DNA of 32,000 nt from Patescibacteria group bacterium (GCA_041674405.1 JBAYVT010000001.1:60001-92000); one strand, 5' to 3'; positions 13,969 to 18,004 are shown, counted from the stretch's first letter. Numbers and translations are program-made. Notes: generated by a model not told the origin, from the sequence alone.

Positions 13969-14226
13969 TCAATATTCCAATTTATATCTCCCGTTTATCA
14001 AGAAGTAGGCTGGGAGATTGTTTTTATCTTCGGCAAGGATTCCGAGGACGTTTTTGCAGTCGCATTGCAGAAAATCGGGAGGGGGCGAACTTAGATATTT
14101 ATTTGGCGCTAATATATTCGACACATGGCAAAAGTGATTTTTGCACTCCCCTACCTTACTCATCTCGAGAACAACCTTGCCGCAGTCACTGCAGACTACT
14201 TTGACTGAACCTGTCCCTCCATCCAT
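13969..14226 (-). CDS. Small Cys-rich (zinc-ribbon-like) protein ZnA, 85 aa
   Basis: I chose ATG 14226 because GGAAGGAG lies 4 nt upstream; the track start at 14250 is TTG. Motifs: VVCSDCG...CKNHFCH...CDCKNVLGILAED. Confidence 0.6.
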   Translation of the reverse strand: MDGGTGSVKVVCSDCGKVVLEMSKVGECKNHFCHVSNILAPNKYLSSPPPDFLQCDCKNVLGILAEDKNNLPAYFLINGRYKLEY

Positions 14227-14248
14227 CGCACTCCTTCCAAAAATTAGC

Positions 14249-14420
14249 AAAATAAAAAGGGTCTCCCGCTGGCGGCACCCTTGCGGGTGCCCTACAACCT
14301 TTCGGCCGTAGACACATCAGCATACCAGACAGAAGACCGTCTTTATTGCTGATGTGTATTTTTTGCCATGCCCTTGCGGGTTTAGGCAATTGCTGTGTTA
14401 TCGACAGCATCAATATTTTA
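14249..14420 (-). promoter_or_regulatory. Structured 5' leader of ZnA with GNRA hairpins and a terminator/antiterminator-like 3' end (unclassified)
   Basis: Minus sense: UUGCC..CCC-GCAA-GGG..GGCAA; an 11-bp stem ACACAUCAGCA/UGCUGAUGUGU; CUACGGCC-GAAA-GGUUGUAG; GGCACCC-GCAA-GGGUGCC (14291-14274). The 3' arm of that last hairpin is shared with GGGU..CCG-CCAG-CGG..ACCC followed by UUUUUAUUUU (14280-14249). A weak possible promoter is TTGGAT-17-TTTAAT (14466-14438). Confidence 0.45.
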
Positions 14421-14506: not shown

Positions 14507-14544
14507 TATCGTCGATTTATCGACGATCGTTCATATTTCGACGA
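14507..14544. repeat. 38-bp nested-palindrome repeat R1 (putative operator)
   Basis: tatcgtcgatttatcgacgatcgttcatatttcgacga, containing the dyads tcgtcgat-tt-atcgacga and acgatcgt. Confidence 0.85.
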
Positions 14545-14573
14545 CCAAAGACAATACAAGGATATGCGGATTG

Positions 14574-14603
14574 TTGACCTAGGTGTATTTCTTAAGTTAA
14601 TAT
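14574..14603 (+). promoter_or_regulatory. Candidate promoter of the G+C-rich orphan unit
   Basis: TTGACC (14574-14579), then TTAATA after 17 nt or TAATAT after 18 nt; 30 bp downstream of R1. Confidence 0.5.
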
Positions 14604-14609
14604 TGCTGC

Positions 14610-14921
14610 AAGTTGCCTAAACCACTGCACTGGAGCTGAGAATCATGCCAAAACATCCTCGAGGCAAAAGAGGTGGCCGAAGCAATCCCGGAAAGGGCAG
14701 CAAGTCCTCGATGGAAAAGCGCTGTGGATTGCCGGCACATCCCCTCCCGCAAGCGATTGACCATTCGGGAACGCTCGGCCCAGACATGGGATGGCTAGAC
14801 CACGAAGCACCCGGAGTAGACTTTCTGAGCCTACCTCCAACCACTCGCGACCACGGGCAATAGCCCAATCCTCGCAGAACCAAGAAAGGCGCCGGCAAAA
14901 GTCGGGGCCTTCTTGTTTTTT
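14610..14921 (+). ncRNA. Orphan G+C-rich transcription unit: candidate ~310-nt ncRNA (alternatively a 72-aa basic protein, 14645-14863)
   Basis: Bounded by the promoter above and an intrinsic terminator (stem 14884-14912 with AAAA loop, then UUGUUUUUU). In the 72-codon ORF, 39 of 72 third positions are G/C by hand count, i.e. no GC3 enrichment. The first 60 codons of the neighbouring G+C-rich MTase give 44 of 60. Confidence 0.35.
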
Positions 14922-14933
14922 AATTAAAAATTC

Positions 14934-15173
14934 TTAGCAATGGCCTTTGTGATAGACTTTGCCTTGAATTATTTTGTTCGCTTTCCTTGTGTGATATGTT
15001 GCCTCACGAGCAAAAAGCCCGCCACATTTGGGACACTTTAAGTCACCATTCGTATAATCTTCGATAATCCGATCTTTATAACATTTTACGAGATGGCCGG
15101 GCTTATCTTTTTGATAGTAATAAAGCTCGGCATTGCAATTTGCGCAGTAGATTTTGATTTTATATATCTTCAT
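14934..15173 (-). CDS. Small Cys-rich (zinc-ribbon-like) protein ZnB, 79 aa, apparent paralog of ZnA
   Basis: IYCANCN...VKC...KCPKCGGLFAREA, with the same knuckle order and G-hydrophobic-hydrophobic-A-acidic motif as ZnA. Confidence 0.6.
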   Translation of the reverse strand: MKIYKIKIYCANCNAELYYYQKDKPGHLVKCYKDRIIEDYTNGDLKCPKCGGLFAREATYHTRKANKIIQGKVYHKGHC

Positions 15174-15187
15174 TATTTTGAATTCCG

Positions 15188-15814
15188 TTATCGTCGATTT
15201 ATCGACGATCGTTTATATTTCGACGATTGGATTTTATCATTAACGGATTCTCGCTCTACTGGTTTGTGACCGGGATTTTTGGATAGAATTTTTGCGATGT
15301 AATTTTCGATATTTGACGATTCAACTACAAAGTAAGCCACATATTCCTCAACTCGATATTCTTTGGACAGCATTTCCACCATATCACCGATATTCCGATC
15401 GCAGACCCAGAGACTTTTCTGAATTTGCCGAAAGCCCATTTGTTTTATCGATCTTCGAAATGCATTTCTTTGTCTTTTTTTAGTCTCTGGAATATCGAAC
15501 GAAACGAGCCGGCGTTTATGGTCTTTCTGGTCCAATACTAATTTGTCGATCATTTTAATCTTTGCTTTATTAGTAAATTTCACCGAATCGCCATTATCAA
15601 TCTCAACATAATTATTTCTCTTAAGGCTATAAATCACGCTCGAAATCTGCCGCCTCGAAATACCGGAAGCACCAAAGCGAACATTAAAATAATCAAGCAT
15701 TTCTGTTTGTTTCATTGATCGTTGATGCTTTTTTACAAATTCAATGATCAAATTTAACGCAGTTTCAATGCATCCTTTCATTAATATCTGCGAATTTCTA
15801 GGCGTCATATACAT
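15188..15814 (-). CDS. PaaX-family-like regulator: N-terminal winged-helix plus Cas2-like ferredoxin-fold domain
   Basis: 208 aa. The wHTH-like segment is ISRRQISSVIYSLKRNNYVE. RLVSFDIPETKKRQRNAFRRSIKQMGFRQIQKSLWVC...YVAYFVVES matches the beta-alpha-beta pattern of Cas2/PaaX central domains. Confidence 0.65.
   Translation of the reverse strand: MYMTPRNSQILMKGCIETALNLIIEFVKKHQRSMKQTEMLDYFNVRFGASGISRRQISSVIYSLKRNNYVEIDNGDSVKFTNKAKIKMIDKLVLDQKDHKRRLVSFDIPETKKRQRNAFRRSIKQMGFRQIQKSLWVCDRNIGDMVEMLSKEYRVEEYVAYFVVESSNIENYIAKILSKNPGHKPVERESVNDKIQSSKYKRSSINRR
15189..15226. repeat. 38-bp repeat R2
   Basis: Identical to R1 except one C>T (37/38). It lies 15 nt upstream of the ZnB ATG and encodes the last ~12 codons of the regulator ORF. 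Confidence 0.85.
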
Positions 15815-15846: not shown

Positions 15847-15884
15847 TGCCGTCGAATATTGAACGATCGTTCATATTTCGACGA
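15847..15884. repeat. 38-bp repeat R3 (diverged), with an inverted partial half-site at 15903-15916
   Basis: The 24-bp core gaacgatcgttcatatttcgacga matches R1 at 22 of 24 positions, and about 31 of 38 overall. It lies between the divergent regulator and methyltransferase genes. Confidence 0.75.
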
Positions 15885-16030: not shown

Positions 16031-16819
16031 ATGAACAAGACCGCCCAAAGACTTTCGAAGAGGTGGCCGCCCTTTCTCCACAAAGTTGTGGAGGCGCCGT
16101 ATGAATCGGCGGACGTGATCTTGCGCATGCTCCGATACAATCCAGAGAAGGCGATGGCAAAGTATCCCCGGCTTCGTGAGATCAAGGACGCATCGGAGAT
16201 CAGCCGGGTCTTTGCGCGCTATGGCCCCCATGGCATCTTCACGGTATCGGACAAGGAGCTGCCGAGGGTGATGGCAGCAGTCGGTGACAACTATGGGGTG
16301 CTCATGACCGTCGAGGACCACGCCTGGATCATGGACAACCTCCTGGAGCAGCTCAGGAGTCCCGCGTCGTTTCTCGATGTGGGATGCGGAGTTTGTCCCT
16401 ACACCGCTTTCCTGGTCCGTGAGGGATACCTTCGCGGCCAGGTGGTGGGAGTCGACCAGATGCCCGAAATACTTGGCCGCGCAAGAGAAGTCTTCGAGCG
16501 CGCACAGGCATCTCACCCACTGGTCCTCGGGACTGCGCTCCGGCTTCCGTTTGCAGATGCGTCCTTCGAACACGTGTTCTGCAACGATGCCCTGCACTGG
16601 ATCAAGGGGTGGAGACGCGCACTCAACGAGATGTGCCGCGTGCTTGCACCAGGCGGACGGCTGTTTGTCTGCTACTCGGTGAAGTTCACGCGAACGCTGA
16701 TCACCGAGCGCGGCATCATCGAGGAGCTGGCCAAGCACGGGATCAAGCCCGCGTTCGTCTCGTTCGACGCCGTGGGCAGCCAGACGCCCCGGACGATTGT
16801 CACCGGGTGCAAAGAATAG
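16031..16819 (+). CDS. Class I SAM-dependent methyltransferase (G+C-rich)
   Basis: Motif I FLDVGCGVCPY, then LRLPFADASFEHVF and LAPGGRLFV. I chose ATG 16031 after AAGGAGG; the track start at 15977 is GTG. Confidence 0.75.
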   Translation: MNKTAQRLSKRWPPFLHKVVEAPYESADVILRMLRYNPEKAMAKYPRLREIKDASEISRVFARYGPHGIFTVSDKELPRVMAAVGDNYGVLMTVEDHAWIMDNLLEQLRSPASFLDVGCGVCPYTAFLVREGYLRGQVVGVDQMPEILGRAREVFERAQASHPLVLGTALRLPFADASFEHVFCNDALHWIKGWRRALNEMCRVLAPGGRLFVCYSVKFTRTLITERGIIEELAKHGIKPAFVSFDAVGSQTPRTIVTGCKE

Positions 16820-16868
16820 GAGGTGGAAGAGCTGAAGAGCGGACCAAGTGTCCGCTTTTGGCTTTTAA
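16818..16868 (+). terminator. Terminator-containing ~50-bp direct repeat, copy A
   Basis: ggaggtggaagagctGAAGAGCGGACcaagtGTCCGCTTTTGGCTTTTAA. The 35-bp core 16834-16868 is identical to 17970-18004; hairpin AGCGGAC/GTCCGCU followed by a U-run. Confidence 0.7.
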
Positions 16869-17017
16869 TCGCCAACTTGGCAATCATTTAATCCGTAAAG
16901 TTTCACATAGCCAAATTCGATGGCTAATAACCTTGACGAAGGAGGCTAATAATGTTATGTTGAACATCGACTTCGAACCACATACCTTTCACATACCTTC
17001 TAAGGGGGAATCGGATA

Positions 17018-17955: not shown

Positions 17956-18004
17956 GGAGGTGGAGAGCCGAAGAGCGGACCAAGTGTCCGCTTTTGGCTT
18001 TTAA
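17956..18004 (+). terminator. Terminator-containing direct repeat, copy B
   Basis: ggaggtggagagccGAAGAGCGGACcaagtGTCCGCTTTTGGCTTTTAA, with the same 35-bp core as copy A. Confidence 0.7.

Follow-up and report, generated by a model that had tools for sequence, protein, structure and literature searches.

Morons are reportedly autonomous insertions of a promoter, a gene and a terminator with atypical G+C content, and were first described in lambdoid phages (the Hendrix/Juhala concept). A unit in the genome of a Patescibacteria group bacterium resembles them in being a discrete insertion between two genes that a relative lacks at the corresponding position, in having a promoter-like site and its own terminator, and in a G+C content about 15–20 points off that of its flanks. 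Unlike morons, however, the unit holds no recognizable or statistically supported gene and lies outside any prophage; the searches revealed neither another copy nor a relative of it, and its mobility is only presumed.

Three other kinds of element invite comparison. With ORFan small protein genes, the unit shares a short open reading frame of 72 codons (ORF72), which is preceded by a Shine–Dalgarno-like motif and has no database homolog. Whereas the four other small G+C-rich ORFs of the genome keep the pattern GC1>GC2<GC3 and the codon choice of their class, ORF72 does not. The layout of the unit, the lack of a downstream gene and the strong hairpin-U6 end recall stand-alone sRNA genes, although a unit of about 310 nt is long for an sRNA and is without a stable fold or conservation even within the family. 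The neighboring, divergently oriented LOOT RNA (RF03000) shares with the unit TTGCCTAAACC and a CATGNCAAAA stretch at its 5' end, but the unit lacks the LOOT hairpins, gave no covariance-model match at E ≤ 10 and showed a fold z-score of −0.4 compared to −8.0 for LOOT.

The window, i.e., the whole stretch of 32,000 nucleotides that was analyzed (C1:60001–92000), belongs to a 0.93-Mb genome in 7 contigs (98.7% complete, 41–44% G+C), and the genomes of relatives range from 0.5 to 1.5 Mb. The unit sits within a block of accessory genes flanked by rpsG and fusA. Along the minus strand, the order is the PaaX/Cas2-like regulator gene, the zinc-ribbon gene, the unit, a 38-nt repeat, LOOT RNA and a second small Cys-rich gene. 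All features named in an earlier note on this DNA were recovered at their positions, and the locus comprises the following features:

14274–14388, minus strand: LOOT RNA (Rfam RF03000; 76.1 bits vs. a gathering score of 46.4), divergent from the unit.
14507–14544, no strand assigned: first copy of the 38-nt operator-like repeat, conserved in related loci; left edge of the insert.
14545–14933, plus strand: whole insert (AT-rich leader, G+C-rich body and terminator), delimited by comparison with seven related loci.
14574–14579 and 14598–14603, plus strand: putative sigma-70-like promoter, match TTGACC-18-TAATAT (scan score 9/12).
14605–14883, plus strand: G+C-rich body (57.3% G+C), RNA structure not significant.
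14613–14623, plus strand: 11-mer TTGCCTAAACC, same as the 5' end of the neighboring LOOT RNA, inverted.
14617–14898, minus strand: antisense ORF of 93 codons, annotated as a gene on ENA contig k141_1464549.
14632–14635, plus strand: Shine–Dalgarno-like motif GGAG, read from the sequence, with an ATG 9 nt further on.
14645–14863 (stop included), plus strand: ORF72, basic and disordered-looking product, coding signature absent.
14881–14921, plus strand: intrinsic terminator (stem 14881–14896/14901–14915, AAAA loop 14897–14900, U6 14916–14921).
14934–15173, minus strand: zinc-ribbon gene (79 aa, weak Pfam zinc-ribbon matches), converging on the terminator; right edge of the insert.
15188–15814, minus strand: PaaX/Cas2-like regulator gene (Pfam PaaX_M, 2.6e-17).
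15189–15226 and 15847–15884, no strand assigned: further copies of the 38-nt operator-like repeat in the window, from a repeat search.

Several observations on the neighborhood were made along with these features. PaaX/Cas2-like regulators are strongly expanded in the relatives G001–G060, with up to 14 copies per 0.7-Mb genome, and the best match of the window's copy among these relatives is just 49% identical. The BLASTP similarity between the two small Cys-rich proteins (13969–14250 and 14934–15173) was not significant (E = 0.12, 9 residues). A terminator-like element of about 50 nt is duplicated with 96% identity (16819–16880 and 17956–18004), one copy following the methyltransferase gene and the other the M48 peptidase gene; the genome has no further copy.

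The limits of the insert were determined by comparison with related loci. The protein cluster of the zinc-ribbon gene (≥90% amino acid identity) has members on seven other contigs, all of which were compared. Nucleotide homology to these seven loci always stopped at 14921–14936, at or just past the stop codon of the zinc-ribbon gene, and both the hairpin and the G+C-rich body were absent from 7/7 of them. One syntenic relative, L096 (Logan SRR30681578_318479), showed the order repeat, PaaX-like gene, repeat, zinc-ribbon gene, repeat, repeat, as in the window, with 70% nucleotide identity over 15613–14933 and a repeat anchored by a 26/26-nt match to 14538–14513. The distance from the zinc-ribbon stop to the repeat was 92 nt in L096 vs. 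394 nt in the window. Thus, 14545–14933 is a lineage-specific insertion, or was lost in the relative. As to the earlier proposal of a decayed remnant of foreign DNA, no frame showed homology to anything, but relative to the related loci the segment is a lineage-specific insertion. Other assemblies of the species were 99.4–100% identical or ended short of the unit. The gene order near the zinc-ribbon gene is shuffled in L091–L094, where a hydrolase/HD gene, the zinc-ribbon gene and the PaaX-like gene follow each other; the order PaaX-like gene, zinc-ribbon gene is common to L096 and the window.

As had been noted from the sequence, the unit stands beside an operator-like repeat, the copy at 14507–14544 bordering the insert on its left. 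Further copies of the 38-nt repeat were found elsewhere in the genome (G000:C5:132524–132549 and G000:C1:203745–203769) and in relatives, namely at L093:6946–6983 (38 nt, 92%) and at L096:159–186, 800–831, 1099–1133 and 1168–1193. Related loci preserve the repeat with identities as high as 100%, while the surrounding DNA is not conserved. One L096 copy overlaps the −10 element of a TTGTCA-17-TAAATA promoter match. Since two of the additional copies are flanked by gene 3' ends on both sides, a role as operator is not the sole possible reading of the repeat.

The body (14605–14883) stands out from its AT-rich surroundings as claimed before, with a measured 57.3% G+C compared to 30–42% in the flanks. 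Merged windows of at least 55% G+C form 149 islands in the genome, so that G+C richness alone is frequent. An isolated G+C-rich island of about 280 nt without a coding signature is unusual, however.

The terminator was characterized by folding. The stem recognized earlier (14884–14912) proved to be the core of the longer stem listed above, and the U-run is present. The stem is imperfect, 15–16 nt long with a bulge and a mismatch, which is why a simple terminator scanner missed the hairpin. As plus-strand RNA, the terminator folded with −22.9 kcal/mol (z = −4.1), a value equaled by 0/200 shuffles. RNA of the same hairpin from the minus strand reached −16.5 kcal/mol (z = −0.9). This asymmetry between the strands arises because G–U pairs turn into C–A mismatches on the opposite strand. 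Due to its strand bias and its absence in relatives, the hairpin was assigned to the insert and to the plus strand rather than to the converging zinc-ribbon gene. No shared terminator family was found for it. The promoter scan yielded 8 sites in 2.4 kb compared to 5.6 ± 2.3 in shuffles; hence, the TTGACC-18-TAATAT match is not above chance. For the promoter-to-terminator unit proposed for the plus strand, support thus came from the terminator side only, through the strand asymmetry of the hairpin.

The explanation preferred here, with a probability of roughly 0.4, is that the unit is a degenerate or non-coding, possibly never-coding, member of the G+C-rich promoter-gene-terminator cassettes of this genome. 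The segment 14545–14933 would then represent a self-contained cassette placed in the interval from the zinc-ribbon stop to the operator-like repeat, with three parts: an AT-rich leader bearing the promoter-like site, the G+C-rich body and a strand-specific intrinsic terminator of its own. Its build would be that of the 'moron'-like G+C-rich islets of the genome, but with a body lacking both a coding signature and a stable RNA fold, and it is this double lack that points to a degenerate or never-coding member of the islet class. If the promoter fires, a plus-strand transcript of about 310 nt would result, and the terminator would end it short of the converging zinc-ribbon gene, which it would otherwise enter in antisense. 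No constraint is detectable on either the transcript or the 72-codon frame, and the insert is presumably without function.

This explanation has to be weighed above all against a real, lineage-restricted small gene, which is possible although somewhat less probable. Translation of ORF72 from the GGAG motif and the ATG would then yield an intrinsically disordered protein of 72 aa, basic over the N-terminal third and acidic and His-rich in the rest. The unit would join the other single-gene cassettes of high G+C content, being of very recent origin or evolving rapidly. ORF72 fills the G+C-rich body, and its stop lies 17 nt upstream of the terminator, whose specificity for the plus strand fits a gene of this orientation. 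Just 6% of shuffles contained an ATG-initiated ORF of 72 or more codons on the plus strand; for any strand and any start, the fraction was 28%. Frames as long as ORF72 are to be expected in such DNA, and the length as such is not significant. A GGAG at a spacer of 4–10 nt precedes 17% of long-ORF starts vs. 2.5% of all ATGs, which corresponds to an about 7-fold enrichment before real starts. The spacer of 9 nt seen for ORF72 is among the less common ones; spacers of 4–5 nt dominate in the genome.

The composition of ORF72, in contrast, speaks against a gene. GC1/2/3 of ORF72 were 0.66/0.55/0.55 compared to 0.62/0.43/0.73 for the adjacent methyltransferase gene and to 0.58/0.47/0.75 and 0.59/0.44/0.77 for other nearby G+C-rich genes; the third position is not raised and the second is unusually high, so that the codon signature is missing, as the earlier note had held. 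Three-base G+C periodicity was insignificant in the unit (p = 0.34) but reached p < 0.01 in 88/94 windows of the same length in the window's G+C-rich genes. With codon tables trained on 37 long G+C-rich ORFs and on 475 long native ORFs from the same genome, ORF72 had log-likelihoods of −0.148 (G+C-rich table) and −0.216 (native table), both lower than the 5th percentile (about 0.016–0.02) for in-frame windows from either gene class. Together with the absent periodicity, this agrees with the previous impression that the unit does not look protein-coding. Synonymous codon choice, a measure unaffected by amino acid composition, scored −0.043 for ORF72, while the 5–95% ranges were 0.047 to 0.46 for G+C-rich genes and −0.53 to −0.09 for native genes. 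Thus, ORF72 falls between both gene classes and within the range of out-of-frame readings. In sliding windows, no frame on either strand attained the median of true frames; the frame of ORF72 was the best of six at 14690–14790, in the 3' half, which counts in favor of a small gene.

The four other small G+C-rich ORFs of the genome, all on the minus strand (C2:39119–39271, C1:175378–175518, C2:121181–121315 and C5:134884–135021), came from G+C-rich intergenic gaps not accounted for by rRNA or tRNA, and there are at least four such units. They comprise 44–50 codons, lie in AT-rich DNA and have a strong hairpin at the stop or at most about 25 nt after it; a Shine–Dalgarno-like motif (AGGAGG or a G-rich run) is evident in 3/4 of them, the C5 ORF being the exception. 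The resemblance of the unit to this architecture of Shine–Dalgarno motif, ORF of 44–50 aa and hairpin about 20 nt past the stop argues for a small gene. However, 4/4 of these ORFs passed the codon tests as coding, with scores inside the gene classes, while ORF72 with the same build failed, both its codon and its synonymous scores lying outside the two classes. The Pfam search of the four ORFs gave nothing significant (one sub-threshold DUF6373 match, E = 0.056), and no similarity was detected between ORF72 and the small basic G+C-rich ORF at C1:175378–175518.

The annotations of the locus conflict as well. For identical DNA, the NCBI record carries the 72-aa ORF on the plus strand, whereas ENA, Logan and JGI carry the 93-aa antisense ORF instead, which weakens the case for ORF72. 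The antisense ORF has GC1/2/3 of 0.55/0.62/0.56 and a TTG start inside the terminator loop, and is most likely a chance frame. A minus-strand frame containing two TAG stops showed weak local periodicity when read through (about p = 0.02, uncorrected). Both gene calls, 72 aa on the plus and 93 aa on the minus strand, deserve to be treated as doubtful in annotation.

Homology searches did not provide a relative of the unit. No DNA homolog was found in its own genome, in 60 relatives or in phages; the search of 400 genomes of the phylum returned chance 20-mers only, and that of plasmids terminator-sized pieces only. At the protein level, the sole match of ORF72 among 5.8 billion clusters was itself, and a full HMMER search of 1.84 billion representative proteins returned itself and one chance match, a repeat in an FN3 protein; this lack of a homolog counts against a small gene, as does the ESM Atlas model of ORF72 (pLDDT 0.25, pTM 0.08). 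No protein homolog was present in relatives, tblastn against the organism's own genome revealed no paralog, and the JGI metagenome scan gave no match. A match of ORF72 in the GTDB contig scan was antisense to a cyanobacterial polyketide synthase gene and was rejected as a chance pattern. The GTDB contig and metagenome scans require runs of eight conserved codons and are blind to distant or out-of-frame relatives. The PaaX-like protein, used as query in a second metagenome scan, gave no match.

Searches with the other frames were equally negative. The 93-codon antisense ORF matched only itself in the large protein databases, the read-through of the minus-strand frame with two TAG stops matched nothing among longer proteins, and none of the open segments in the six frames had a match in Pfam, PHROGs or NCBIfam. 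Hence, no frame matched any protein or family in the collections searched, and a pseudogene fragment, which had been raised as a possible outcome of a blastx-type check, did not come to light. A 37% match of ORF72 in another genome (G041) was discarded, as it sits in an RNA-like stretch beside a tRNA. This stretch (L004:1480–1700, G041:C70) is G+C-rich (52–66%) and frame-less, lies beside a tRNA gene and looks like an unclassified RNA.

The cassette explanation is favored over a small gene because the coding tests failed for ORF72, whereas the four sibling ORF units pass them. Several points count against it. The layout, with promoter-like site, GGAG, an ORF filling the body and a terminator, is exactly small-gene-like. 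Non-functional DNA of 57% G+C would drift to 41% in this genome; thus, the unit would have to be recent or maintained by something. Moreover, degeneration is not directly demonstrable since no intact homolog exists. Overall, a rough estimate puts the odds of gene vs. non-gene near even. The lean is towards non-coding, since the synonymous-choice and the GC2/GC3 tests are independent of amino acid composition and separate the unit from its siblings.

A functional structured RNA had no support. Rfam 15 at gathering thresholds gave no match within 14574–14921, so that the Rfam check suggested in the earlier note brought no family to light. At E ≤ 10, in a search of 1.2 kb, the body remained blank, and there were only sub-threshold sRNA matches on the terminator hairpin and one snoRNA match of 14.6 bits. 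With dinucleotide shuffles as reference, the body without the terminator had fold z-scores of −0.39 (plus) and −0.98 (minus), and four sub-windows of the body ranged from +0.7 to −1.4. The same test gave −8.0 for LOOT, −6.2 for tmRNA and −2.2 for RNase P of this genome, and −0.65 to −5.4 for G+C-rich coding windows. Since the body folds like shuffles and is blank in Rfam, the idea of a novel ncRNA gained nothing. The pairings pointed out before (catccc 14738–14743 with gggatg 14788–14793, and gggc-aata-gccc) do exist, but are no better than chance, the hairpin at 14736–14795 having z = −0.07.

RNase P, tmRNA and SRP, whose motifs had not been seen in the sequence, were among the Rfam families covered without a match, as were 6S, LOOT and hammerhead. 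The identity of the unit as RNase P RNA or tmRNA was rejected, as both are located elsewhere in the genome, and SRP RNA was rejected, as the genome is without SRP RNA, Ffh and FtsY. The SRP pathway as a whole was not detectable in the genome: RF00169, RF01854, the Ffh M domain (PF02978) and the SRP54 GTPase (PF00448) were all blank, and no ORF carries the DTAGR motif, while SecY as positive control was found at 1.7e-100. Forty relatives gave only weak P-loop matches, and 0/121 genomes of the phylum gave a match at E ≤ 1e-15. This absence agrees with what is known, as both SRP subunits are remarked to be missing in many CPR bacteria (PMC8080830).

A regulatory RNA of about 310 nt that acts in trans or in cis by base pairing and does without a fixed fold is unlikely, but accounts for part of the observations. 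It might belong to a regulon of the PaaX-like regulator and LOOT/zinc-ribbon elements, with which it has the region of the operator-like repeat and 11 nt of 5' sequence in common. The orphan promoter-to-terminator layout with no plus-strand gene downstream, the absent coding signature and the strand-specific terminator are in line with such an RNA, and so is the restriction of TTGCCTAAACC to the unit and the LOOT 5' end. Against it stand the fold z-score of the body and the blank Rfam search at E ≤ 10, as well as the lack of a DNA homolog in the 60 relatives and in the 400 genomes of the phylum. Pairing to neighboring 5' regions, assessed by a crude duplex test, was not above shuffles. In addition, about 85 nt separate the repeat from the putative start downstream of it, and the L096 repeat overlaps a −10 element of opposite direction.

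The relation to LOOT was analyzed through the shared motif. Across the 0.93 Mb of the genome, TTGCCTAAACC is found exactly twice, at the LOOT 5' end (14379–14389, minus) and at the putative start of the unit (14613–14623, plus); the two copies are inverted, 225 nt apart and followed by a loose continuation of the match. A local alignment between the unit and the LOOT 5' end (shared 16-mer) as good as the observed one was reached by 8/500 shuffles. At 18 other LOOT loci, an inverted copy of the LOOT 5' end was not conserved, the one exact case lying inside a reverse-transcriptase gene, and the genome's other two LOOT loci have no such unit. The shuffle result and the lack of recurrence count against a regulatory RNA, and the TTGCCTAAACC match between unit and LOOT is probably a coincidence. 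Quite improbable is a lineage-specific regulatory RNA that is divergent from the LOOT/zinc-ribbon leader, whose TTGCCTAAACC would be a tag in common with LOOT or would compete for a LOOT-binding factor, and which would belong to the regulon of the expanded PaaX/Cas2-like regulators of Patescibacteria. In genome G003, which is of the same family as the window's genome, an ORF of 321 aa at L077:79–1044 (minus) carries the reverse-transcriptase-like motif FRWVDDIIIG; a LOOT RNA follows about 450 nt downstream of it.

Least probable of all is that no plus-strand unit exists, the hairpin being a bidirectional terminator of the zinc-ribbon gene, the promoter match a chance event and the body a silent spacer: the promoter-like match is at chance level, 22 nt separate the hairpin from the converging gene's stop, and the minus strand, too, has a U-rich stretch (UUUCUUGGUU), but the hairpin is weak as minus-strand RNA, and its absence after the homologous gene in all seven relatives indicates that it arrived with the insert.

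Taken alone, the insert matters little: it is one unique, unconserved piece of about 390 nt without a demonstrable product. Its value is that of a data point on a pattern of this genome, i.e., small G+C-rich units of promoter, body and terminator in AT-rich DNA, and the unit would be seen here either before gaining or after losing its coding signature. If transcription and translation data proved its expression, it would provide a clean case for studying the origin or decay of these cassettes in ultra-small bacteria.
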